Shown: positions 4,449 to 57,717, counted from the stretch's first letter. The stretch is DNA of 64,000 nucleotides from an uncultured archaeon (GCA_938048735.1 CALIUM010000011.1:24816-88815), one strand, 5' to 3'. Translations and numbers: made by a program. Notes: generated by a model not told the origin, from the letters alone.

Positions 4449-4670
4449 AAGTCTTATCGGGCCCGTAGCTTAGCTTGGTCAAAGCGCTCGGCTGATAAAG
4501 GGGTTAAGGAGACCATGGGGGAAATATCGAGGTATGCGGGACATGAGGAAGATCCAAAAGAAGGTATACAACCCCCAGCCCAGGTTAGCATACCGACCTT
4601 AAATCTCGAGCACTCTCCAACCCCTGTGGAGACCGAGAGAGCATGAGTTCAAATCTCATCGGGCCCACCA
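4449..4670 (+). tRNA. tRNA-Ile (anticodon GAU) carrying a long intron; 3' CCA encoded
   Basis: Acceptor stem GGGCCCG/CGGGCCC; D-arm GCTT-AGCTTGGTCA-AAGC; anticodon stem CTCGG/CCGAG with loop CTGATAA split after position 37; T-arm ATGAG-TTCAAAT-CTCAT; discriminator A then CCA. Confidence 0.65.
4488..4631 (+). other. tRNA intron (~144 nt) at the canonical 37/38 position of tRNA-Ile
   Basis: Sequence lying between the two halves of the anticodon stem-loop; exon 2 resumes with A-CCGAG, which completes the anticodon stem. Confidence 0.55.
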
Positions 4671-6490: not shown

Positions 6491-7092
6491 TATAAAAATA
6501 TTTAAACTTCTCTTTAATGAAATTTTGTAACCTTTAGGATGGAATTGCAGAATGGAAACTGCAAAAAAAGTAGAATATAGCTTGGAAGAACTAAGGTTAT
6601 TTCAAGTTAATCACATCTGGCTTGGGTGAGATCAACCCTTGGTTTGAGCTGTTTTGCTACCGGGTCTACCTGGTAGCCGAGGTCCTCTAGGGGATGTGAA
6701 TCCAAGGACTAATCCTCCGGATCGAAGATCACGAGGGCACAAGATCAGGTATCAAGCACGGCGACAAAACCTCCCGCTCAACCACAGCTCCGCCATGACT
6801 CTCAGCCTCCTAAAGCCAAGAGGCTCAGGCCCAGCTCCTCAAGTAATCCTCGATGGTTCGATGTGAAGGCCACCCCCGCGTCGACAGCTCGTGTTGGACA
6901 TATCCGCTGGATCATATATTAGAATCCCTACATATGTGAAGTCCAAATTCCAAAACAGATGATATGTGGCTACAGATGACTAGAACTAAGTTCAATTTCA
7001 TCATTGAAGAAAAATGATCTTAATTTAAATTCCCTTTAAATGATGCTCATATATGGTGATCATCGTTAGCCTCGTTGATGGAAGGATGAGGC

Positions 7093-7539
7093 TTAGGTCT
7101 CTGATGATGAGGCCCTCTCCTCGGCCGCGGTTCTCATTATGAACCTCAGCGTCCCGCGGCCCATGGGCAATTCCTCTAGCTTTTCGAGAGGTACCCACCT
7201 AGCCTCAAGGGCGTCAGAGGAGGGTTTGAGGCTCCCCCCGACCACCCTGCAGAGGAACTCAGAGAGGATGTAGTGGTACCTAACCCTCCCCTCCTCATCT
7301 CTAACAATGGAGTCGTAGACCTCCAGCAGCTTTATAGGCTCCACCTCGATCCCGCACTCCTCCCTCACCTCCCTGACTATAGCCTCCCTGACGGTCTCAC
7401 CCAGCTCAACGACGCCCCCGGGCAATCCCCACAACCCCTCACCAGGAGGATTCCTCCTCCTAGTTAGGAGGACCTCATTACCCCTGAGGATCACGGCGGC
7501 CACCCCCGCTATGGGCCTCTCGGGATACTCTCGCCTCAT
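7093..7539 (-). CDS. NUDIX hydrolase
   Basis: Nudix box GGVVELGETVREAIVREVREECGI (Gx5Ex7REUxEExGU). Confidence 0.8.
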   Translation of the reverse strand: MRREYPERPIAGVAAVILRGNEVLLTRRRNPPGEGLWGLPGGVVELGETVREAIVREVREECGIEVEPIKLLEVYDSIVRDEEGRVRYHYILSEFLCRVVGGSLKPSSDALEARWVPLEKLEELPMGRGTLRFIMRTAAEERASSSET

Positions 7540-7696
7540 ATCTCACCCAAGCCCAGAGGGTTCAGCTACAGCCTTTCAAGGCTGGAAGATATTTCCCCCT
7601 AAAAGTATTATATCTTCTCAGATGAGAAAGGGAGCTTATTGGTAGAAGGGCCTTTCTCAACGAGTTCATAAACAATCTATGGGAAATAAAAAGGGG

Positions 7697-8833
7697 TTAT
7701 GCCTCCTTCCCCCTTCTCCTCGTTACGAAGTAGGCGATGGCTGCACCGATGATGAGCCCCACTACGACTCCACCTCCGAGACCCATATACAGGTTGTTCG
7801 TCCTCTCAACCTCTAAGGAGCTTACCCTCGCCTCAAGGATCTTCACCTTATCCTCTTGGGTCTTCAGCTTGGAGCTGAGCTCATCTATCTTGCTCTTAGA
7901 CGCCGTTAACTCGGCGTTCAACTTTGAAATGTTATTCTGGAGCTCCATGATTCGATAGTAGGTCTCGAACTTCAATGCGAAGTTGATCATGTTGGTCACG
8001 AAGGTCGGGCCGTCTAGGGCTACGCCGTAGTAGACCGAGGACCATGTTGGCTCATAATCCCCATAGGGGCTCTCTCCGCTCGCTATGACCAGCCCCATCT
8101 TATCCCCGACCTTAACAAACTCGGCCGCGTTAAGAACTAGGGAACCCGACTGGCCTGCGGTATGTGCCCTCGCCGCTGGTGGGCTGTTCTCGACTATCTT
8201 CCCGTTGGTTGAGGTCTTCACTATCCTCACCACGTTTTCAGGCTTCTCAGCCTCCAGGGCAACCCAAGACCCGTCTGGCTTGACATAGGCCAATACCCCT
8301 GGGCCGTGGTATAGAACTGGATTTGAGATGCCGACTAGGAGGTCGCTCCTCACAGGCTCATCCGGGTCGACGTTGGCAACCACCCTGTATGGGGCTTTAG
8401 CATTCTGAACAGGATCCTCTGCGGAGCATAGGTCCAATCTTAGCCTGGAGCCTAACGCCTCCAGCAGGCCGTTTGCAGTGTCCTGGTAGCCCACACCCGG
8501 TCCATAGTCGCTATCTGCTGCGATCCAGACGGCTTTTCCCCCCTCGAGGAACCAGGACTTAAGCGCCGATATCTCATCCGGTGTGAAGGCGGCTGTCGGC
8601 TGTCCTATGAGGAGAAGCTTGACTCCTGAGAGGGATGCAGAGTTGAACTCTTTGATGGTTCTCCATTCAACAAAGGTGATGTTTCCGGTTATGAAGCTGA
8701 GATACTTGTCGCTCTCCCCATGCGATAGGTCCACCGCGACAATAACGCGCTCGCCTCCAACAGGAGTTGATGCAGGTAAAGCTGCCGTTGTTAGGAGAAG
8801 GAGAATTAATGCAATCTTCTTAAGTGACATCAA
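7697..8833 (-). CDS. Secreted/cell-surface protein: signal peptide, ~270-aa globular domain, coiled-coil stalk, C-terminal transmembrane anchor
   Basis: N-terminal hydrophobic signal (LILLLLTTAALPAS); heptad-like segment (ELQNNISKLNAELTASKSKIDELSSKLKTQEDKVKILEARVSSLE); C-terminal GLGGGVVVGLIIGAAIAYFV followed by RRRGKEA. Confidence 0.6.
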   Translation of the reverse strand: MMSLKKIALILLLLTTAALPASTPVGGERVIVAVDLSHGESDKYLSFITGNITFVEWRTIKEFNSASLSGVKLLLIGQPTAAFTPDEISALKSWFLEGGKAVWIAADSDYGPGVGYQDTANGLLEALGSRLRLDLCSAEDPVQNAKAPYRVVANVDPDEPVRSDLLVGISNPVLYHGPGVLAYVKPDGSWVALEAEKPENVVRIVKTSTNGKIVENSPPAARAHTAGQSGSLVLNAAEFVKVGDKMGLVIASGESPYGDYEPTWSSVYYGVALDGPTFVTNMINFALKFETYYRIMELQNNISKLNAELTASKSKIDELSSKLKTQEDKVKILEARVSSLEVERTNNLYMGLGGGVVVGLIIGAAIAYFVTRRRGKEA

Positions 8834-30030: not shown

Positions 30031-30471
30031 TCAACCCGAATATCTTGGCCTCAACCTCCAGATCCTACCCATCCTCTCATATCTTGAGGCTATCGCGCTC
30101 GAGGCATCCCTAAATAGGTTCTCTGGGTCATAAAGGGGTAGCCCCTCCGATAATGCGTCAAGGATTACCCCCCACCCTCCCTTAATTCCCTCCCAAAGTT
30201 CCTCCGGGGTCAGCCAGATATCCTCAACGGCCAATGGGCGCTTCCTCAGCCTCGAGGTATAAGCCCTCCTCTCCAACAGTCTTTTGGGAAGACCTCTCGA
30301 TACTACAAGTACATCAACATCACTTTCTGGATAGGGTTTAATGAAACCTCTAACTATGGATCCAAAGACAACTATTAAGAGGATCTCATTGAAAGTTTTC
30401 TTTGCCTCCTCCAGAAATTCCTCTAGGTCTTCTATATATTTTCTCTCTCTAACTCTCAAGAGCTTTAACAA
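30031..30471 (-). CDS. Nucleotidyltransferase (MNT/minimal NTase) antitoxin-like protein
   Basis: GS...DxD motif: FGSIVRGFIKPYPESDVDVLVV; 146 aa; overlaps the upstream HEPN gene by 7 nt. Confidence 0.7.
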   Translation of the reverse strand: MLKLLRVRERKYIEDLEEFLEEAKKTFNEILLIVVFGSIVRGFIKPYPESDVDVLVVSRGLPKRLLERRAYTSRLRKRPLAVEDIWLTPEELWEGIKGGWGVILDALSEGLPLYDPENLFRDASSAIASRYERMGRIWRLRPRYSG

Positions 30472-30941
30472 TCCAATCCCTCGATGATCTGCTTTGCAAT
30501 CCTGAATACCTCTCTAGCATTTGCCACAAGTAGATGGGTCTTCTCCTCGTCATATATTTCAGAGGGCTTTATAACTCGATCTATGGTCTCCCAGCCATAC
30601 CTAGGTGCCACGCCCTGATCCTCGAGCACTAAGGAGAGGGAGACCAGTCTATCTAGAAGGCGCATCTCCTCCTCTGGAAGTTCTATAAGCCCACCGATCA
30701 TTAACCCTCTAAGCACTAGACTAGGCCTATGGGTTTTCCCAGGTTCAAAGCCAAGGGCTACTATAACGCCCTTCACACACTTCTGAGCGGACAGCTCGGC
30801 GTGGAAGACGGAGCTGCCATATCGCCCCTCCCTTAAGTCAGCGTCAGAATCATCTAAATCCTCCTCAGCCATAGATAACCAGTCTAAGGCCTTCCTGGTT
30901 ACAGGCACAAACAGCACCGTAAGAGAGAAGGCAAAGCTCAT
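30465..30941 (-). CDS. HEPN-domain protein (toxin-like partner of the MNT)
   Basis: ~120-aa all-alpha domain, operonic and overlapping with the MNT gene; the true start is probably an internal Met (MAEEDLDD). Confidence 0.6.
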   Translation of the reverse strand: MSFAFSLTVLFVPVTRKALDWLSMAEEDLDDSDADLREGRYGSSVFHAELSAQKCVKGVIVALGFEPGKTHRPSLVLRGLMIGGLIELPEEEMRLLDRLVSLSLVLEDQGVAPRYGWETIDRVIKPSEIYDEEKTHLLVANAREVFRIAKQIIEGLDC

Positions 30942-33267: not shown

Positions 33268-33581
33268 ATCAATCCGATGGATTTTATCACCAACCCTTTA
33301 TTTAAAACAATGCCCAAAACCTTACCTTAAGAGTTAAGAACCGAAACTCCAGAGCCTAGGCTCTCCATTAGAATTATCCTCAAGATAAGATGAAGAACCC
33401 ACTTCCCCAAGAACCCCTCTATCCCTGTCAAGAATGAGATCCACAATTTAGGCCTCCAATCAGGCCCATGTAGGTTACTCCGTCATATAGGCTGGGGAGG
33501 CGGCCTTGGGGGAGATGGATGATTAAGCTTTAATTCGCAATCCTTTTAAATATGATGAATCCCTTATACTAAAGGAGACAA

Positions 33582-34562
33582 ATGAAAACAAAAATACCAT
33601 TAGTATGCTTAATTATAATATCTATATCAATTATGGTTATTCCATCTCATTGTGCAGAAGAAGGAGGATGGATCTCATGGTATAAAGTAGAAGATTTAAA
33701 GACGAAAAAATTGATAATGGAAAAAGATCTTATAACAGGAAATGAAAAAATCTATGAACCTGTACTTAGCGGTGCAGAATATAATGTAACTGTTGTTTTA
33801 AATATCGCTGTAACTGTACCTCGATCTGTTTTGAAGATCAATACATCATTAGAACGTGCAAGCTTGTTGGATAGGTTTTGGGAGCTTCACACTAAAGATT
33901 ATCCTATGGTTAATTATAATCCAAGTGAAAAAGCTGTAAGATTTAACCAGGTCAAAGGAAATCTTACAATATCAATGTATGGAAGAATTCCTCAAAATAT
34001 AACAGAAAAAATTTTTAACGGATATGTTATTAATAAAGCGGTTGATTATTCCGTTTTAGAATTGAGAGGTCCAAACGATGAAATATTAGATTATTTATCT
34101 TTCAATGTGATAGATTCAAAAATTCATGAATATCGAAATTTGTTAAGGTCAAAAGAAAATGATTTGAAAAATATTAAAAATCAAGGAGTAATAAGTTCAT
34201 ATGTTAAGTTATATGAAAAAATGTTAAATCAATCAAAGTTTGAGGCAGAAAAGGGTTTCATAGATAATGCCATAAAAATATTGAATTTGTTATCTATAGA
34301 AGGAGCTCCCAAAGAACCAACCCCATCAATTTTAGAAACATTATTTTACCCAACTGTTTTGATACTAATAGGTGTGATTGTATTTACCGGATTCATGTTT
34401 CAAAGAAGCAGAGCTAAATTGAATTATACCTTAATGGTGGTTGAAGAACAAGTCAAAGAGCTGGAGGGTCTAGGGGTCAGATTATCTAAAATAGATAAAA
34501 ATATTTCTTTAAATTTGGATGGTATTAAAGATAGGCTGAAAAGGTTGGTTGGGGTGTCCTGA
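33582..34562 (+). CDS. Type-I membrane protein: signal peptide, ~220-aa extracellular domain with several N-glycosylation sequons, single TM helix, ~55-aa cytoplasmic tail
   Basis: N-terminal LVCLIIISISIMVIPSHC; NVT/NTS/NLT/NIT sequons; TM TVLILIGVIVFTGFMF followed by QRSRAK; the stop overlaps the next gene start (translational coupling). Confidence 0.6.
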   Translation: MKTKIPLVCLIIISISIMVIPSHCAEEGGWISWYKVEDLKTKKLIMEKDLITGNEKIYEPVLSGAEYNVTVVLNIAVTVPRSVLKINTSLERASLLDRFWELHTKDYPMVNYNPSEKAVRFNQVKGNLTISMYGRIPQNITEKIFNGYVINKAVDYSVLELRGPNDEILDYLSFNVIDSKIHEYRNLLRSKENDLKNIKNQGVISSYVKLYEKMLNQSKFEAEKGFIDNAIKILNLLSIEGAPKEPTPSILETLFYPTVLILIGVIVFTGFMFQRSRAKLNYTLMVVEEQVKELEGLGVRLSKIDKNISLNLDGIKDRLKRLVGVS

Positions 34563-37218
34563 TTTGTCAAAACAGCCCTCTAACATAATTCACCTAATAG
34601 GTTTAGGTTCCGCTGGGACGAATATAGTTGAAGCCTTTATTTCAAGTAAGAAAACCATGAACTTATTAGAAAATGAAAATACTCGCCTATCCCTTTTAGC
34701 TATAGATGTTGCAGATCCAGATATCAGAAGTTTGCAGGAAACATATAGTAAATTATTAAAGGAGATGAAAGATAAGGGCATACCTAAAGAAAGAATTTCT
34801 CTAATAGCTCAATCCATTAAATTTCCAACCGCTGAAGCTATGTTTGACTTTATAAATGAAAAATATAAAGATCATTTAATTAGTGAGGGTGTAACTCTTG
34901 AGGAATATTCCCCGTGGTTGCCTTCAACGATGGCGATACCACCTCTAGCAGGAGGCGCTGGTAGGAGAAGAGCTCTGGCTAAGGCGATATACGCCTTAAA
35001 CTATTACCAACTTGGAATCATAAGAAACTTCTTGAACTCTTTCAAGGAACAGGCCCTCTCATCGATAATGACCCCAATAGTGATGATCATCTACGGGATA
35101 GGTGGGGGGACCGGGAGCGGGATAGCCTTCGAGTTCGCTAGGCACCTCAGGAAGGTTCTAGGTTCAGGAGTTCCGATCATAGGCATGTCCATCCTTCCAT
35201 GCAGGGGGGATGACCCGCCCGCCAAGGGCTGCTCGGCCTTCTCCTCGTTAACCGAACTCTCACTGCTGTTGAATAAGGACTATAACGATTATATATGCAA
35301 GAATTATGGTGAATTCTATAGAAACCCCTTCAACGCATTTATATGCATTCCACTAACTCCAGCATATTCAAATACAGGGAACATAATAGTAGCTAGAAAA
35401 GATATCGATGAAATGATTATAGATATAATATATATGTTAATGGATTTTGATTTATCTGATCTATTAGGGGGAATAGGAACTGAAGTAGGGTTAACCGAAG
35501 ATTATATTCATACAATAAGTATGACAAAAGTTGTTTATCCAGTAGATGAATATATAGATGCTTTTAAAATATACTTAGATAGAATACAAACTTTATACGA
35601 ATTCAGAAAAGAGAAACTTGAAATAATAAACAATATTAATGAAATATTGATGCTAAGATATAATGATATAAAGGAAATCCTAAAAATGTATTTGATAAAA
35701 ACAGGAACATATGTGGAAGAACAATTCGATGAAAAAACTAAATCCATAATAAGGAGCTCATCAAGATTTAACGAAGATTATTGGTTATATATCAAAGGAG
35801 TAGAAGATCAAATAAAAAATTGGATTAGTGAATTGTCAAAATTCTTGACAACAATAAAATTGACAGCTAAAACCGGGACAATAGAAGACGCCATTGTCAA
35901 TTTAACACTCCACAAAGAGGAATCAAGGGAAATGGATAATCTCGAAGATCTATTAACAAATATCACAAAAACATACATTGAATTCCCAGAAAAAAAGGGG
36001 ATAATTTTTGAAAGATTAAAACAGTTAATTCCAAGCTCACAAATACTTACTATAAGACAGAAAAGGATTTTAGATGATTTAATGAACATTACAGAAATTG
36101 TAGATAAAACTCTCCAAATATTTAAATTATATAATGAATCCAGATTTTTAACAGAAACATTAATTAGATATTACTCAGCAATTCCTGAAACAGAATCAAT
36201 ATCGAGAGAATTAAAAGAGATCAGAACAGAACTTACATGTTTATACTATATTGTCCAACTAATCTTGAAAACCCCATTAGATGAAGCTAAAATAATAGAT
36301 GAAAATTTGACTTATCTTCAAGGAATCATAAATAAGATAAGGGATGAAATTAACGTTATAAATGAGGAAATATTGAGAATGGAAGAATCGAAAAAGAGAA
36401 AGGAATTTGATCGTACAAAGTATGAACAAGAAATTGGAAGGTTTTTTGGAATAGGTAGAAGAAAATATATTAAAGAAAAACTGGCTAAGTTAGAGATTGA
36501 TATAAAAAGAATCGAGGAAGAGAAAATTTATTTAGAGAAAAATGCCAAAGATTATGATGTTTTACTAAGATCTTATAATAACTTGATGAGAAAAATTGAT
36601 GTCACTTCAGATTATAGAAGAAAGTTGAACAAGATTATAGAATTATATGGCGCCTATCAAGATAAGATATCTGATGTTCTTAAACCAAAAAAATATTTTG
36701 AAAAGACAACCGAACTAACTGAAACAGAACAAGTAAAAATAATATATAAAATTTTAGCCGAACAAGAGGAAGATTTATCAAGAGAAGGTATCTTAAAAGA
36801 AATCCTTGATACAGATCATTTTAAGGACTATATGAAAAGTGTGATTAGGATTTTCAGGACTCCAAGTTTTATGGGTTTAAATACATCATTTAAATCAGAT
36901 TACATATGGGTAACAGTTCAGACCCCCCAGGGTCTTTGGAATGAAGAATTAACTCAAGAGATTTACACTGTTTTAGCAGGATATATTGTGGGAGAAGTAT
37001 CAAGGAATGTTACAATTAGAATAATAGATTCAAGGGATCCATGGACGATAAGGATTCTTGTTGTAGGTGGAAGAGGAAAACCTATGAATTTAGAAACATA
37101 TGATGAGATGCATGTGCTTTACAATAAATCAACAGAATTTGAAAAACAACTTTCTAGATCCTTTTTAATTGAGCATGAAATCAACATTAATAAGATTATC
37201 GATAAAATAAATCTTTAG
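34549..37218 (+). CDS. Divergent FtsZ/tubulin-superfamily GTPase (N-terminal ~330 aa) fused to a ~560-aa coiled-coil-rich C-terminal region
   Basis: T1-like IGLGSAGTN; T2/T3-like LLAIDVADPD and AGGAGRRRALAKA; T4 tubulin signature GIGGGTGSG; T5-like MSILPCRGDDPPAKG; the remainder is heptad-rich K/E/I/L sequence. Confidence 0.7.
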   Translation: MGCPDLSKQPSNIIHLIGLGSAGTNIVEAFISSKKTMNLLENENTRLSLLAIDVADPDIRSLQETYSKLLKEMKDKGIPKERISLIAQSIKFPTAEAMFDFINEKYKDHLISEGVTLEEYSPWLPSTMAIPPLAGGAGRRRALAKAIYALNYYQLGIIRNFLNSFKEQALSSIMTPIVMIIYGIGGGTGSGIAFEFARHLRKVLGSGVPIIGMSILPCRGDDPPAKGCSAFSSLTELSLLLNKDYNDYICKNYGEFYRNPFNAFICIPLTPAYSNTGNIIVARKDIDEMIIDIIYMLMDFDLSDLLGGIGTEVGLTEDYIHTISMTKVVYPVDEYIDAFKIYLDRIQTLYEFRKEKLEIINNINEILMLRYNDIKEILKMYLIKTGTYVEEQFDEKTKSIIRSSSRFNEDYWLYIKGVEDQIKNWISELSKFLTTIKLTAKTGTIEDAIVNLTLHKEESREMDNLEDLLTNITKTYIEFPEKKGIIFERLKQLIPSSQILTIRQKRILDDLMNITEIVDKTLQIFKLYNESRFLTETLIRYYSAIPETESISRELKEIRTELTCLYYIVQLILKTPLDEAKIIDENLTYLQGIINKIRDEINVINEEILRMEESKKRKEFDRTKYEQEIGRFFGIGRRKYIKEKLAKLEIDIKRIEEEKIYLEKNAKDYDVLLRSYNNLMRKIDVTSDYRRKLNKIIELYGAYQDKISDVLKPKKYFEKTTELTETEQVKIIYKILAEQEEDLSREGILKEILDTDHFKDYMKSVIRIFRTPSFMGLNTSFKSDYIWVTVQTPQGLWNEELTQEIYTVLAGYIVGEVSRNVTIRIIDSRDPWTIRILVVGGRGKPMNLETYDEMHVLYNKSTEFEKQLSRSFLIEHEININKIIDKINL

Positions 37219-37269
37219 GAAAATATAATAATACTAATTCCCAACAATTTCATACTACATCCTGATTTA

Positions 37270-38445
37270 TTACCCTAAAACATCTTTAAATTTTACTTTA
37301 TCTATTATACCTTTTTTAGTTAGGTATTCAATTGTTTCTCTTGATTTCTCTTCTAATAAATTCAAAATTTTTTCTTCATTAAAACCTCCAACTATAATCA
37401 TAATATCTATTCTGTCATTTGTTTCGTCTATAAAAATAGGATCACTAATATATATTGCTTTTGGTGTTGACTTTTCTCTTATCCATCTTATAAAGGTGGA
37501 TTCGATTTTTTCTTTGGTAATTTCACCCCTCAATTTAACTGGGATCCTGGCTAACACATAAAAAATATATGATTCTTTTAAATCAAAATTTAAGAGCGTT
37601 CTATATAACATTGAATTAAATATGTTTTCTAGAGAATCATAAATTTTCAGGCTGCAACCAGTAGAAATTAATATTGTATATAATTTAATATCGAAGTATT
37701 TTGAAAATCTTATAAAATCATTCACGAAACTCACTTTAGATAACATCAACCCTAGAATTTCATTCAGGATCATGCTCCCTTTAATTAAATTACCTTTCCT
37801 GTCAACTCCAACATAGTCTTCTAGAAGATCTCTGTTTATTATAAAGATTGGATAAAATCCTTTATTTATGCAAATAGTTATTGATGATACAGAATTAAAA
37901 TGGGCATCGGAGGGTTGTGTTGGAGATGGTATCAAAGCTATAGAGATCAAATCTATTTTCCATTCCATTAACTTTGATGTTATATATGGAAAAAGACCAC
38001 TTCCAACCCCATCCCATGTAGATGAAACTATTAATGCAGATTTAACCTTATGTAGAAGCCTGTCTTTTAAATCTGAATCTAATAATCCTCTCTTTTCAAT
38101 ATATTCATACATATTAAAACAAAAATGTTCATCGATATTAGGGTCGACATCTATAAAACTAAAAAAATCTATTTTATCAATGAAATTTTCTATGAAGAAT
38201 TCACTTTTCTTACCAATTAGGAGAAACAAAATATCGTTAGATGATTTTAACGATAAATTTTTTAAAAAAATGTTGTTTGTATATCCACCTAAACTTATAG
38301 ATGCTCTTTCTGGTATCCTGAGTTTCAATGACCTAATATGCCTCAAAACACTTTCAAGCACATCGAATGATTCTATACTCATCAGGTCACGAAGTAAACT
38401 TTTAAAGGCCTTACAAATAAATATTATGAATGAAGGCCATGCCAC
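37270..38445 (-). CDS. Degenerate FtsZ/tubulin-like paralog (possible pseudo-GTPase partner)
   Basis: Weakened motifs at FtsZ-like spacing: SLGGYTNN (T1), FIDVDPNI (T2/3), SSTWDGVGSG (T4, vs GGGTG[ST]G), IALIPSPTQPSD (T5); the start is probably the internal MSIESF (38382). Confidence 0.5.
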   Translation of the reverse strand: MAWPSFIIFICKAFKSLLRDLMSIESFDVLESVLRHIRSLKLRIPERASISLGGYTNNIFLKNLSLKSSNDILFLLIGKKSEFFIENFIDKIDFFSFIDVDPNIDEHFCFNMYEYIEKRGLLDSDLKDRLLHKVKSALIVSSTWDGVGSGLFPYITSKLMEWKIDLISIALIPSPTQPSDAHFNSVSSITICINKGFYPIFIINRDLLEDYVGVDRKGNLIKGSMILNEILGLMLSKVSFVNDFIRFSKYFDIKLYTILISTGCSLKIYDSLENIFNSMLYRTLLNFDLKESYIFYVLARIPVKLRGEITKEKIESTFIRWIREKSTPKAIYISDPIFIDETNDRIDIMIIVGGFNEEKILNLLEEKSRETIEYLTKKGIIDKVKFKDVLG

Positions 38446-40784
38446 GATTACATGATTCAGTTAAATTCATCCAAAGAATAATTAAAATTTTTACTTTTTC
38501 AGTTTCTTTTTCCGCCCTTTCTATGGGCCTTTCCTTCATTCCACTTCTTCCTCAACCCATACCACTAATAATATCTTTCATCATTTCTTTTTTAATACTG
38601 AATAATCGCAGAGAGGGAATGATTATGGGAAGCTTTCTAATTGGATTAGGATTAATATATCATTTGAGTAGAATAAACCTTATTTTAATACTTGGAAGCA
38701 CTGAAACAAAACTACTTTTTTTAAGTATTTTAATAATTTTTTTCCTTTTTACCCCAATAATTGCAAAAATATATGAAGATATCATAGCTATTTCTATTGG
38801 AATCATCGCTGCATCAATGCTTTTTTTCAATCAAATATACTTTTTCGCAGTACCCCTAATAATAGTTTTTGCAGGGATATACAAAAAACAAAGGATATGG
38901 CTAACATTATCATATTATGCTGTTATCTCGATTCCAATACAAATAATGCAATACATAAAATACATTTACAATGAAGAATATCATACTCTACCACCTTTAT
39001 ATGTTCCATTATCAGAAATCTTTAACGATATACAAGAATCAATGAAAAAAATAAGTATAAATGAAATATCAAGGGTTTTAGATATTATTTCTGGGCAGTT
39101 TAAATCGAGGTCAGACTCAACACTAAAATTCATGATAAATGCCGTATCTGAATATATAAACTCATTTCCAGGAGTCATTTTCTTTTTGATAATAATGTTC
39201 AGCCTTGTTTCCATAACTGCCTACATAATGTCTAATTCATTGAAAATCATCGAAAGTATGGAGATAACAAAAAAATATTCCAAATTCCTAGAAATATTTT
39301 TTTCAGTTATCACTGTAACGATAATTACAACACTATTCTATACATTTCTTATAATTCTTCAAGAACCATTATCCTACGTGGCAGAAATAAATCTTTTCAA
39401 CACAATGGCAGGCATTATTGGAACAGTATTAACTACCATCCCAATTTCCTTCATAAATTATGAGATGAAAATCAGCAAAATAATAGAAAGGCGCTCTGAA
39501 ATAATAAGAAGAAATTCTGAAAAATTAATGGATGATATGGAAAATTTTAACGAATTAATTAGAAAAATCAGTAAAAATATCCCAGTTAATGTTGACTCTC
39601 TAAAAAGTGAAGCTGTTTCAATTGAGGAAAAAATTAAAGATATATTGGATAATATAAAATATGGAATTTATGGTTTAACAGATTTGGAAAGTAAAATTTC
39701 AGCAATAGATACTGAAATAAAAGATGAAGTAAATAATTTATACAAAAAATTAAATACTGTATTGAATGAATATTATAGGAATGAAGACTATGACTTCAAT
39801 ACATTGCTAGAAAATTATAAAAAAATAGGAATTGAAATAAATGGCGAGATATCAATAAATTACATAGATGATGAACCAATAGAAATAAAAATAGAGAAAA
39901 TAGAAATGATGCTAAATAAGCAATGGGAAATAACTGAAAAAATTTTAGACATATATGAAAAAATATATAACATACTAAGAAATTATTATGATCCTTTACT
40001 TCCAGAAGAAAATCCTACTCTGGCTATTGCAAAACAAAAATTTCAAGAAAGGCAGTTTCCATGCGTTATCCTAGAGGCAGTATATATCTCGATTAATAAT
40101 CTGGAAATGCAATACTCAAAAGAAATATCTAATACTATTAACAGGTTAATTGAACTTATGAATTCAACAAAAAACATTTATATAAATAAAGAAAAATCAA
40201 CGATCTTAAGTAAGGAAATTCGTGATAGATTAATAGATGCTGAAAATAAGGTAAATAATTTAATAGAGATATCTGAGAAAAAAGTTTTCACTATAACTAA
40301 GGTTATTAAAGTAAACGAAATAATAAATGAATATGTAAAAATATATAAAGAGATGTTTCAAGACATATACGAAGAAATAACTCTAAAAGAAGGTCATATC
40401 GAAAAATTAGCAATTAGTGAGGGAATAAAATTTACAAAAAACAATCAAGTAAAAGACAAAATAATTTACATTTTAGAAACCCTAAAACGGCCTCATATTT
40501 ATAATATTAATGAAACTATAATTAATTTAGAAAAGTTTTTAATGCAAATTGATGAATGTTTCGAAATTATATCTAATTATAATGAAACTGAGGAAATCCT
40601 AGCGAACTACGAGATTTCAGAGTTAATTATGAAAAAACTATTAAGAGAAAAGGGATTAATAAAAATAAATGAACTTCCATTCAAAAAAGAAATTGCAAAA
40701 AAATATATGGAGATTTTCAGTCAGCGATATAAAAAAGATGTGATGCTTGATTTTGAAACATTTACAATTTACAGAGGGGATTAA
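38430..40784 (+). CDS. Polytopic membrane protein (~8 TM helices, N-terminal ~330 aa) with a ~450-aa coiled-coil cytoplasmic domain
   Basis: Multiple long hydrophobic segments followed by heptad-rich Lys/Glu/Ile/Asn sequence; AT-rich codon usage. Confidence 0.6.
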   Translation: MKAMPRLHDSVKFIQRIIKIFTFSVSFSALSMGLSFIPLLPQPIPLIISFIISFLILNNRREGMIMGSFLIGLGLIYHLSRINLILILGSTETKLLFLSILIIFFLFTPIIAKIYEDIIAISIGIIAASMLFFNQIYFFAVPLIIVFAGIYKKQRIWLTLSYYAVISIPIQIMQYIKYIYNEEYHTLPPLYVPLSEIFNDIQESMKKISINEISRVLDIISGQFKSRSDSTLKFMINAVSEYINSFPGVIFFLIIMFSLVSITAYIMSNSLKIIESMEITKKYSKFLEIFFSVITVTIITTLFYTFLIILQEPLSYVAEINLFNTMAGIIGTVLTTIPISFINYEMKISKIIERRSEIIRRNSEKLMDDMENFNELIRKISKNIPVNVDSLKSEAVSIEEKIKDILDNIKYGIYGLTDLESKISAIDTEIKDEVNNLYKKLNTVLNEYYRNEDYDFNTLLENYKKIGIEINGEISINYIDDEPIEIKIEKIEMMLNKQWEITEKILDIYEKIYNILRNYYDPLLPEENPTLAIAKQKFQERQFPCVILEAVYISINNLEMQYSKEISNTINRLIELMNSTKNIYINKEKSTILSKEIRDRLIDAENKVNNLIEISEKKVFTITKVIKVNEIINEYVKIYKEMFQDIYEEITLKEGHIEKLAISEGIKFTKNNQVKDKIIYILETLKRPHIYNINETIINLEKFLMQIDECFEIISNYNETEEILANYEISELIMKKLLREKGLIKINELPFKKEIAKKYMEIFSQRYKKDVMLDFETFTIYRGD

Positions 40785-41700
40785 AATGTATTCGTTTCAA
40801 GGATATAAAGTAGGTTTAGGCAATATCAAATTGGATATATTTGATGATCGAATTGAAATATATCTTGAAAGAGGTTATCTAAAAAAGAGTAAAGAAGTTG
40901 TGAAGGTAATTTATTTTAAAGAGATCAATAAGCTTGAAACCAATAATAATGACCTTATTATTTACTTTACTAGTGGTGAAATATATAATATAAGTTTCGA
41001 ACAAAGAGAAATATTGAAAAATATATATGATGAGTTAATTGTTATCTTAACGAAAATTAATGGCAATACTGACCGCAAAATCAGTGCAACTATGTTAACT
41101 GATTTAACTAAAAAATCTATTTGTTTGATTGATTTTTTATTTGATGTTGTTTTAAACTTACGGGGCAAAATTTTCTGGGAAAATTTAGAAAAGAATCTAA
41201 AAGATATGAAGAAAGTTTATGAAGATATTAAAGCAATTTATAATAATTTTGTGGATCTCGAATTTATGGAGGTTGAGAAAAACATAACTGATCGTAATCC
41301 TGAACAGATCCCCCTGAAGGTGTTTGATTATGTAAAACTAATATTGTCTTTTTATAGAGGTTTAGAAAAAATTGATGATAAAGATTTGATTATTTTAAAA
41401 TCTAAAATTATGGATTTTTCAAAAATTATTGAATCTGAGATATTATTGAACGATATAATAATAGGTATAATTCTAGGAGATGGCTTTGTCGATGAAGAAA
41501 TTGAGGTTTTTATAAATCTAATAAACCCCCTATTCAAAAAAATTAACATTACTTTAGAAAGAAGTGATATAATAAATCAATTCGAAGAACTAAAGTTTAA
41601 GGGAAAAGATTATCAAGTAATAAATAAAATTAGGAATTTCTTTAAGGATTTAGTCATGAGATATTTCTCTGGTGAAGGATTAAAGGTTTCCCTTCTATGA
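40747..41700 (+). CDS. Hypothetical soluble Lys/Ile/Glu-rich protein, last gene of the island operon
   Basis: 317 aa; overlaps the upstream gene end; no motif recognised. Confidence 0.5.
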   Translation: MILKHLQFTEGIKMYSFQGYKVGLGNIKLDIFDDRIEIYLERGYLKKSKEVVKVIYFKEINKLETNNNDLIIYFTSGEIYNISFEQREILKNIYDELIVILTKINGNTDRKISATMLTDLTKKSICLIDFLFDVVLNLRGKIFWENLEKNLKDMKKVYEDIKAIYNNFVDLEFMEVEKNITDRNPEQIPLKVFDYVKLILSFYRGLEKIDDKDLIILKSKIMDFSKIIESEILLNDIIIGIILGDGFVDEEIEVFINLINPLFKKINITLERSDIINQFEELKFKGKDYQVINKIRNFFKDLVMRYFSGEGLKVSLL

Positions 41701-41805
41701 GACTGGCTTGATTTTTAAGCTTCGCGCCCTCCTTTAATTTGGGTGTAGGCCTTGTCGTATGTCTATCAGGAGAGGTTGTGGAGAGGGGCTGAGAGGGGGT
41801 GCTGT

Positions 41806-57601: not shown

Positions 57602-57717
57602 TGGTCCCGCCCCCCGGAGTTGAACCGGGAACCCTCCGGTGTCTGCTCAATGGCTGGGTGCCTTCGCCCATTGGGCGAAAACTACAGCCGGATGCTCTAC
57701 CATTGAGCTAGGGCGGG
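57602..57717 (-). tRNA. tRNA-Tyr (anticodon GUA) with a 41-nt intron; C1:G72 pair; CCA encoded
   Basis: Acceptor CCCGCCC/GGGCGGG (C1-G72, an archaeal/eukaryal Tyr identity feature); D-arm GCTC-AATGGTA-GAGC; anticodon stem TCCGG/CCGGA with loop CTGTAG|intron|A; T-arm CCCGG-TTCAACT-CCGGG; A73 then CCA. Confidence 0.7.
57641..57681 (-). other. tRNA-Tyr intron (41 nt) at the canonical 37/38 position
   Basis: Lies between anticodon-loop nucleotide 37 and A38-CCGGA; the intron contains self-complementary GCCCAATGGGC. Confidence 0.6.

Follow-up and report, generated by a model that had tools for sequence, protein, structure and literature searches.

The window analyzed here, 64,000 nucleotides of an uncultured archaeal genome, encodes an FtsZl1-type GTPase facing an ORF whose product carries what look like worn versions of the GTP-binding loops of FtsZ and tubulin. 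This arrangement raises the question of whether the second protein belongs to the tubulin/FtsZ superfamily and, if so, whether it is a partner of the GTPase next to it. The ORF lies at positions 37270-38445 on the minus strand and, from a GTG start, encodes 391 aa identical to the deposited protein P0001. The first-pass annotation had pointed out that this start overlaps a divergent membrane-protein gene by 16 nt, which we confirmed (GTG at 38443-38445, ATG of the divergent 784-aa gene at 38430), and had preferred the in-frame Met codon at 38380-38382, from which the protein opens with MSIESF. The lengths and N-termini of the homologues bear this preference out: nearly all of them (n=116) are 368-382 aa long and open at or near the MSIESF equivalent, M(N/D)IESF. 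Because the homologues lack the 21-codon N-terminal extension of the 391-aa ORF (38383..38445, minus strand) and begin at the equivalent Met, Met 38382 is likely a better start than the annotated GTG, and the extension is probably untranslated. The likely true coding region, which we refer to as gene E (37270..38382, minus strand), then specifies a 370-aa two-domain tubulin-fold protein with remodeled nucleotide loops. Between this start and the divergent gene (gene C) lies an AT-rich spacer of 47 bp (38383-38429), with TTTTAAA at 38400-38406 and AAATAAATATTA at 38416-38427, which we read as a putative promoter region. On its other side gene E is convergent with the 889-aa gene B (34549-37218), across a 51-bp gap.

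The direct signal that links E to the superfamily is weak, and the transitive signal is strong. Pfam PF00091 (Tubulin) matched E at 17.4 bits, below the cut-off of 33 (E-value 0.0055), over aa 134-205, which is the T4-T5 stretch alone, and a single-sequence phmmer search of the PDB gave noise only (SspB, E-values above 0.5). A family profile built from 64 sequences matched the Asgard tubulin AtubB2 (E-value 0.0017) and CetZ (E-value 0.019) in the PDB, and 41 of the 64 family members matched PF00091. Comparison of the family with a single E. coli FtsZ sequence by hhalign gave the right register with an E-value of 0.047, which is not significant alone. Through a sister clade the link becomes firm: hhalign aligned the E family with this clade over 354 columns at a probability of 100% and an E-value of 1e-40, and the sister-clade profile in turn matched CetZ1/2, TubZ, FtsZ, AtubB2 and BtubB with E-values of 1e-14 to 1e-10, a range that extends to 1e-7 when the tubulins are counted in. 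An AlphaFold2 model computed from the family alignment (pLDDT 88.8, pTM 0.87) contains a complete S1-S6/H1-H7 GTPase domain, a C-terminal beta/alpha domain and two terminal helices. The top Foldseek matches of this model were all tubulin-superfamily chains, with both domains covered and E-values of 1e-12 to 1e-14, the best being TubZ 2xka at 2.2e-14.

Profile similarity and a tubulin fold, whose joint absence the first-pass annotation had named as grounds for abandoning its assignment to the FtsZ/tubulin superfamily, were thus both found, in the family profile, the model and the Foldseek search, and the assignment stands. Two features expected of the superfamily, a two-domain fold with H7 and significant sequence or profile similarity, are present in E. 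It does not qualify as FtsZ proper (FtsZ1/FtsZ2), for which FtsZ-type motifs, the C-terminal domain and closest similarity to FtsZ are expected, and it looks nearer to tubulin and CetZ than to FtsZ. We conclude that E belongs to the tubulin/FtsZ superfamily and, as modeled, has both domains of the tubulin fold in full, and that it represents an undescribed family across Bathyarchaeia.

Motifs were placed on E by hhalign against E. coli FtsZ, by MAFFT alignment with FtsZ, beta-tubulin and relatives, and by the secondary structure of the model; the FtsZ and beta-tubulin reference sequences were entered by hand. The segments SLGGYTNN, STWDGVGSG and IPSPTQPSD are present in tubulin order and fall on T1, T4 and T5, and the erosion of the glycine boxes that the first-pass annotation had noticed was confirmed for T1, T3 and T4 by the MAFFT alignment and by family conservation. 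All of the E motifs are on the minus strand. The T1 remnant SLGGYTNN (38272-38295) corresponds to the family consensus C-I-G-E-Y-P-I-K and retains one invariant glycine only: where canonical proteins have GGGGGN or GQCGN, the family has G-E-Y-P and the window gene G-G-Y-T. Conservation is high at G32 (64/64), E33 (59/64), Y34 (63/64) and P35 (57/64), and the model places a single-residue loop between S1 (26-31) and H1. The T3 remnant DPNIDEHFCF (38116..38145; family D-x-N-I-D-T-H-F-W-F) aligned with GAGNNWA of tubulin and GAGRNW of relatives with intact motifs, so that canonical GAGNNW is set against D-T-H-F-W in the family and D-E-H-F-C in the window gene; H86 is kept in 59, F87 in 63 and W88 in 62 of the 64 members, the window gene having C at the last position. 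At T4, STWDGVGSG (37996-38022) replaces GGGTG(S/T)G, with W-D-G-V-G-S-G in both the family and the window gene. Here hhalign set WDGVGSG opposite GGGTGTG of E. coli FtsZ, and MAFFT with tubulin, FtsZ and the intact relatives concurred. S121 and W123 are invariant (64/64 each), and D124 and G125 are found in 60/64 and 62/64 members.

Other parts of the tubulin pattern are kept. The T5/H5 motif LIPSPTQPSDAHFN (37894-37935), of which IPSPTQPSD is part, is tubulin-like (compare VPSPKVSDTVVEPYNA), with the pattern PSxxQxSDxxFN retained and P, Q and N invariant. Since the Asn that aligns with the guanine-contacting N206 of tubulin (YNA motif) is invariant in E, binding of a nucleoside or another ligand is possible. 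The T7/H8 region, KVSFVNDFIR (37708..37737), was placed by alignment in a register uncertain by 1-3 residues. Within that uncertainty, an acidic residue (D222 in the 370-aa protein) present in 63 of the 64 members aligns with FtsZ D212 and alpha-tubulin E254; a second acidic position is E in 55/64 members and R in the window gene, and K216 is invariant. In the alignment about 7 residues of the T7 loop of the intact relatives are missing from that of E, around which the model has a helix (202-215), a loop and a further helix (219-228). Both longitudinal surfaces are highly conserved, the top one at T4-T6 and the bottom one at K216 and the acidic T7/H8 residue.

Judged from these alignments, the T1, T3 and T4 loops are replaced family-wide by conserved bulky or acidic residues. 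Against an orthologue of 87% identity in locus L001, E has a dN/dS of 0.21, with a dS (0.30) close to the 0.35-0.49 of the flanking genes. Given this dN/dS and the family-wide fixed replacements, E is a functional, remodeled protein under purifying selection rather than a decaying one, its degeneracy being fixed and selected. Because the T1, T3 and T4 loops serve GTP binding in the superfamily, their replacement means that E has most likely lost canonical GTP binding and hydrolysis. In the clade of the window, further losses have occurred at sites conserved in the rest of the family (E33G, P35T, W88C and E225R).

The neighboring gene B (34549..37218, plus strand) encodes an 889-aa protein in which an N-terminal GTPase head leads into a long coiled coil and a helical region at the C-terminus; the protein matched Pfam Tubulin_2 (E-value 8.8e-13) and Tubulin (9.6e-10). 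The FtsZl1 architecture has been described as an FtsZ-like head, a coiled coil and a helical C-terminus (PMC2875224), and B shows all FtsZl1 (Tubulin_2) features, including the lack of a canonical C-terminal tubulin domain. In the model of its head, S1-S6 and H7 are followed by a short helix, a disordered stretch and long coiled-coil helices, with no C-terminal beta domain, and Foldseek matched this head to FtsZ at 1e-6. The T1 loop reads GLGSAGTN (34600..34623, plus strand, by alignment) and the T4 signature GIGGGTGSG is intact (35095..35121, plus strand), with G185, G186, G187, G189, S190 and G191 invariant in 27 sequences. A T7-like motif, MDFDLSD (35440..35460, plus strand), was found in hhalign register with MNVDFAD of FtsZ, in a region of low model confidence; in the 27-sequence alignment of this (M)DFDL(A/S)D motif, F300, D301 and D304 are invariant. 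The expectation of a partner with intact GTPase motifs holds for B, which keeps GLGSAGTN, GIGGGTGSG and the T7-like DFDLSD. As for the conservation of the T7 acidic residues, which was to be checked in both proteins, those of B are invariant, and E has one acidic site (63/64) in a shorter loop of uncertain register. Calling E a paralog of its neighbor proved an overstatement. BLASTP of E against B gave an E-value of 0.036 in the wrong register and nothing meaningful, and comparison of the two profiles found the T4-T5 stretch alone in common (E-value 0.0013, probability 18%), so that a close paralogue or recent degenerate copy of B was rejected as an account of E.

Three further genes flank the pair, all on the plus strand. 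Gene A (33582..34562) encodes a 326-aa bitopic membrane protein with a signal or TM segment (7-25), an external domain of about 225 aa, a TM segment (250-268) and a short, conserved cytoplasmic tail. Gene C (38430..40784) encodes a 784-aa polytopic membrane protein with at least 6 TM segments within aa 30-310 and a charged helical cytoplasmic region of about 440 aa. Gene D (40747..41700; ORF call and tblastn) encodes a 317-aa soluble protein and is a variable fifth component. Pfam gave no family above threshold for A, C or D, and a search for a Walker A motif in A and C found none. A scan of one genome per GTDB species yielded 80 loci, nearly all of them titled Bathyarchaeota or Bathyarchaeia, in which we examined synteny by tblastn with the five window proteins. 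Synteny was near-universal: B lies convergently downstream of E in 69 of the 70 loci with enough flank, C divergently upstream in 69 of 69, and an A homologue beyond B in 57 of 58; D was matched in only about 8 of the 80. In one genome (L090), E and C are present and B is not nearby. The most conserved protein across loci is B (55-62% identity), with 27-41% for E, 31-45% for A and 24-35% for C. The TM profiles of A and C, together with disordered extensions in some E members that carry basic-aromatic motifs resembling membrane-targeting sequences, indicate that the module is membrane-associated, as the 2010 prediction for FtsZl1 would have it.

The five-gene module also stands out in base composition. 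Its extent matches exactly that of a sharp AT-rich island (33400..41750) with a GC content of 0.22-0.39, rising to 0.51 over the T4 region of B, against 0.54-0.60 outside. This island is confined to the genome of the window and its closest relatives, and in 55 of 56 other species the GC content of the module equals that of its flanks. The GC contrast, the dS of the module, which is like that of the flanks, and the GC match in the other species point to the module having been acquired horizontally long ago, from a low-GC Bathyarchaeon, without subsequent amelioration.

Beyond Bathyarchaeia, a search of 1.84 billion representatives with the E profile recovered a second tier of relatives, proteins of 420-460 aa with an N-terminal zinc ribbon. 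Many of these have intact GxGxxG, GAGxNW and GGGTGSG motifs, and others are independently degenerate. Two distant loci carry such GTP-competent sister orthologues in co-directional modules: C784, E458, A355, B857 in L008, and A350, B905, C773, a 325-aa gene and E431 in L011, with the E motifs intact in both. A is present in each of them and the C homologues are weak. BLAST recovered no D homologue from these two modules, and the 325-aa gene at the same position in L011 is without BLAST similarity to D. The adjacency of E and B, which had been read as meaningful from the window alone, is thus seen in 69 of 70 species loci and in distant lineages. Because the modules of L008 and L011 combine FtsZl1 with an E protein of intact motifs, the association between FtsZl1 and a second protein of tubulin fold predates the Bathyarchaeia E family, and the predicted dead pocket of E is the derived state.

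Comparison with known systems sets this module apart. A 2010 prediction placed FtsZl1 at the heart of a membrane-remodeling system with membrane-protein partners, and the same paper raised the question of how a tubulin head without the C-terminal domain would assemble (PMC2875224). The archaeal operons described there contain A2, FtsZl1, a membrane P-loop GTPase and A1, and the bacterial ones carry vWA, OmpA and kinases (PMC2875224). B is a member of this FtsZl1/Tubulin_2 family, and A precedes B like the small membrane protein A2 of the archaeal operons. In contrast to those operons, the present module has no vWA, Walker A protein or P-loop GTPase, kinase or OmpA, and has a second tubulin-fold gene that PMC2875224 does not mention. 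E itself differs from the FtsZl1 family in having no Tubulin_2 match, a complete C-terminal tubulin domain and no coiled coil. CetZ (PDB 4b46, 4b45, 3zid) is euryarchaeal, whereas the E family is found in Bathyarchaeia with its T1, T3 and T4 glycine motifs replaced, and a linkage of CetZ to an FtsZl1 module like that of E is not described in the literature searched. As regards membership in CetZ, E is without the GTPase motifs, and significant CetZ similarity is reached by the sister clade only.

One homology search returned mostly haloarchaeal non-canonical FtsZ-family proteins. These "FtsZ family protein, noncanonical" entries, of which P0304, P0329 and P0330 were found by the E profile with E-values of 1e-9 to 1e-4, are the non-canonical TSF or "Halo.Tub" of PMC9856176 and PMC9871819 and are, like E, uncharacterized. 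They have LPxxxExxQxxFNA, DRxD-LLxGG and C-terminal helix motifs in common with E, but their T1 and T3 glycines and their GGGTG(S/N)G are preserved, they score above the Pfam Tubulin threshold and they belong to another gene cluster. TubZ and PhuZ, which gave the best Foldseek E-values, are divergent tubulin folds with C-terminal helices, as is E. Alpha/beta-tubulin, BtubA/B and Asgard AtubA/B are each two close paralogues with full folds, and alpha- and beta-tubulin both bind GTP. In contrast, the putative E/B pair consists of remote relatives encoded by convergent genes, E without GTP loops and B without a C-terminal domain.

We favor, as the probable explanation of these data, a reading in which E serves an FtsZl1 membrane module, alongside A, B and C, as a tubulin-fold subunit without catalytic activity. 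E would act as a structural or regulatory subunit of a machine built around the FtsZl1 GTPase B, docking on the FtsZl1 head through its tubulin-type longitudinal surfaces, and the docked protein would stabilize or tune FtsZl1 assembly or cap it in a presumed direction; A and C would form the membrane scaffold at which FtsZl1 assembles. Since the T7 acidic residues of B are invariant even though the pocket of E is predicted to be dead, the T7 of B probably serves a live GTP site elsewhere than in E, presumably that of another B (B on B). For the same reason, a strict alternating E-B-E-B copolymer of the alpha/beta-tubulin kind appears disfavored. Binding of E at an end or laterally, or with its T7/H8 face on the GTP face of B, would be the preferred geometry, and in view of the roughly 7 residues missing from it relative to GTP-competent relatives, the T7 loop of E may be too short to reach the nucleotide of a partner. 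Counting against the favored reading are the extra substitutions in the clade of the window (W88C, E225R, E33G, P35T) and the locus with E and C without B nearby. A stronger version, which we regard as possible but rather doubtful, is that E and FtsZl1 are two tubulin-superfamily subunits, each "half-competent" and complementary to the other, in an obligate hetero-assembly anchored by two membrane proteins.

Other explanations accommodate part of the same evidence. E could be an autonomous CetZ-like filament former, with a non-canonical nucleotide pocket or free of nucleotide, that is tied to FtsZl1 by a shared process and not by direct assembly with it. The full two-domain fold with both longitudinal faces conserved, the invariant T5/H5 motif and guanine-contact Asn equivalent, the CetZ-like, GTP-competent sister clade, the possibility of separate B-B contacts suggested by the invariant T7 of B, and the presence of E in L090 with no B nearby are all in keeping with such a filament. 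We nevertheless consider it unlikely, given that replacement extends to the phosphate-binding glycines of all three loops (T1, T3 and T4), with the acidic E33 and D124 placed to occupy the phosphate site, and that synteny with B in 69 of 70 loci in a fixed inverted order is tighter than is usual for co-functional genes. The replaced loops may instead form a pocket (Y34, H86, F87, W88, W123 and D124) for another small ligand or a peptide (perhaps the tail of A on the cytoplasmic side, or part of C), E then being an adaptor or sensor that links the membrane proteins to FtsZl1. The (near-)invariance of these replacements implies selection for a new pocket function, and A and C offer a conserved cytoplasmic tail and a large cytoplasmic region, respectively; but the argument is purely inferential and overlaps in part with the favored reading, and we hold it to be quite improbable as a separate explanation.

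A third proposal, in which a mobile element or virus carries the module as cargo and E and B serve TubZ-like DNA segregation, draws on the sharp AT-rich island in the window and on TubZ being among the best Foldseek matches. It is made very improbable by the equal GC content of module and host in 55 of 56 species and by the lack of a DNA-binding partner. A scan of viral contigs for E relatives found none. Finally, the weak direct Pfam match (17.4 versus 33 bits) and the empty phmmer search of the PDB might be taken to mean that E is a decaying pseudogene or resembles tubulin by chance, an idea to which we give next to no credence: the frame is intact, the dN/dS is 0.21, the motifs are conserved and the gene is found in at least 80 species genomes, and conserved motifs, dN/dS and fold evidence likewise rule out a chance motif match.

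In our literature search we met neither an account of the E family, its degenerate loops or a second tubulin among FtsZl1 operon genes, nor any experimental study of FtsZl1. The search also found no nucleotide-pocket-degenerate member of the tubulin superfamily described, so E may be an uncommon prokaryotic example of such a tubulin. What appears to be new here is a tubulin-superfamily protein with a selected non-canonical pocket that is locked into an FtsZl1 module. At the level of annotation, the start codon of gene E is corrected, and more than 100 "hypothetical proteins" gain a family-level annotation. In Bathyarchaeia, as well as in two or more further lineages, FtsZl1 is accompanied by another protein with the complete tubulin fold, and E and B provide a concrete pair with which to ask how FtsZl1 assembles. 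If the hetero-assembly were true, B would supply the GTP site without a C-terminal domain and E the full fold and T7 face without a GTP site, together making up a previously undescribed archaeal membrane-remodeling cytoskeleton, and the zinc-ribbon GTP-competent and the dead forms would record an independent division of labor like that of alpha- and beta-tubulin. Overall, the locus points to what may be an undescribed two-tubulin membrane machine, and the series of E proteins from GTP-competent to dead offers material for studying the evolution of tubulin-like heteromers.

The tubulin-fold protein E of the five-gene module (37270-38382, minus strand, 370 aa) has distant relatives in which the GTP-binding signature is preserved. 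In two co-directional modules of distant lineages (L008, 5633-13098; L011, 810-9296), the relative of E carries a zinc ribbon at its N-terminus together with an intact GGGTGSG motif, and lies beside the same FtsZl1, bitopic membrane and polytopic membrane components. The glycines were lost independently in four homologues of the same tier (P0245, P0252, P0260 and P0279). In the window clade, substitutions are found at near-invariant sites of the family (E33G, P35T, W88C and E225R, in the 370-aa numbering), and with the last of these the second of the acidic residues that follow T7 is lost. In the FtsZl1-type head of B (34549-35862), a T7-like motif, DFDL(A/S)D, is located at 35440-35460; it is invariant in heads of this type and matches the register of FtsZ NVDFAD. 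The motif would immediately follow the predicted helix H7, and is itself followed by a coiled coil instead of a C-terminal tubulin domain. The T6-H7 region of the FtsZl1 family could not be aligned by Makarova & Koonin (2010) (PMC2875224).

Some members of the E family bear disordered extensions of 100-290 aa rich in E, P, K and Q, located N-terminally in P0204, P0205 and P0208 and C-terminally in P0210 and P0212. Repeated basic-aromatic motifs, such as KKKGFFSFFSGLRKK, occur in the N-terminal extensions of P0205 and P0208 and may serve in membrane targeting.

Among 70 loci, the sole exception to the module arrangement is L090, a 2.47-Mb Bathyarchaeota contig where the homologue of E is a 508-aa ORF (6980-8506) adjoining C, and where the FtsZl1 and A genes are absent within 7 kb downstream of it. 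Two short contigs, L024 and L037, measure 2.5 and 3.9 kb and are assigned to Promethearchaeota and Borrarchaeum bins; both encode a Bathyarchaeia-type E with ~40% identity to that of the window and with C upstream; in L024 the end of B is also present downstream of E. These are probably binning errors, not Asgard occurrences.

The module is spanned by a sharp-edged AT-rich island (33400-41750), with a GC content of 0.22-0.39 compared with 0.54-0.60 outside. This difference is restricted to the window clade (the window, L001-L003 and L013), and module and flank GC are equal in 55 of 56 other species. Because dS of the island against L001, whose E orthologue is 87% identical, is similar to that of flanking genes, the island appears to be old and to have undergone no amelioration. 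Its borders show neither an integrase nor repeats, and a tRNA-Ala is located 1.9 kb away on the left side.

Elsewhere in the window, two overlapping genes on the minus strand (30031-30941) encode a HEPN protein of 158 aa and a nucleotidyltransferase of 146 aa, with DUF371 and tRNA-Ala directly to the right; such overlapping pairs are typical of toxin-antitoxin or defence modules. Two Rfam tRNA matches without an ARAGORN match (4459-4667, plus strand, 209 nt; 57605-57717, minus strand, 113 nt) are probably intron-containing archaeal tRNAs.

A co-directional cluster of haloarchaeal type (L009, 2409-15447; also L010) contains two tubulin genes of the PF00091 family, with products of 404 and 410 aa, along with proteins of 86, 369, 705, 1033, 395 and 948 aa. 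Relatives carry the annotation 'FtsZ family protein, noncanonical'. This cluster may be another multi-tubulin module.
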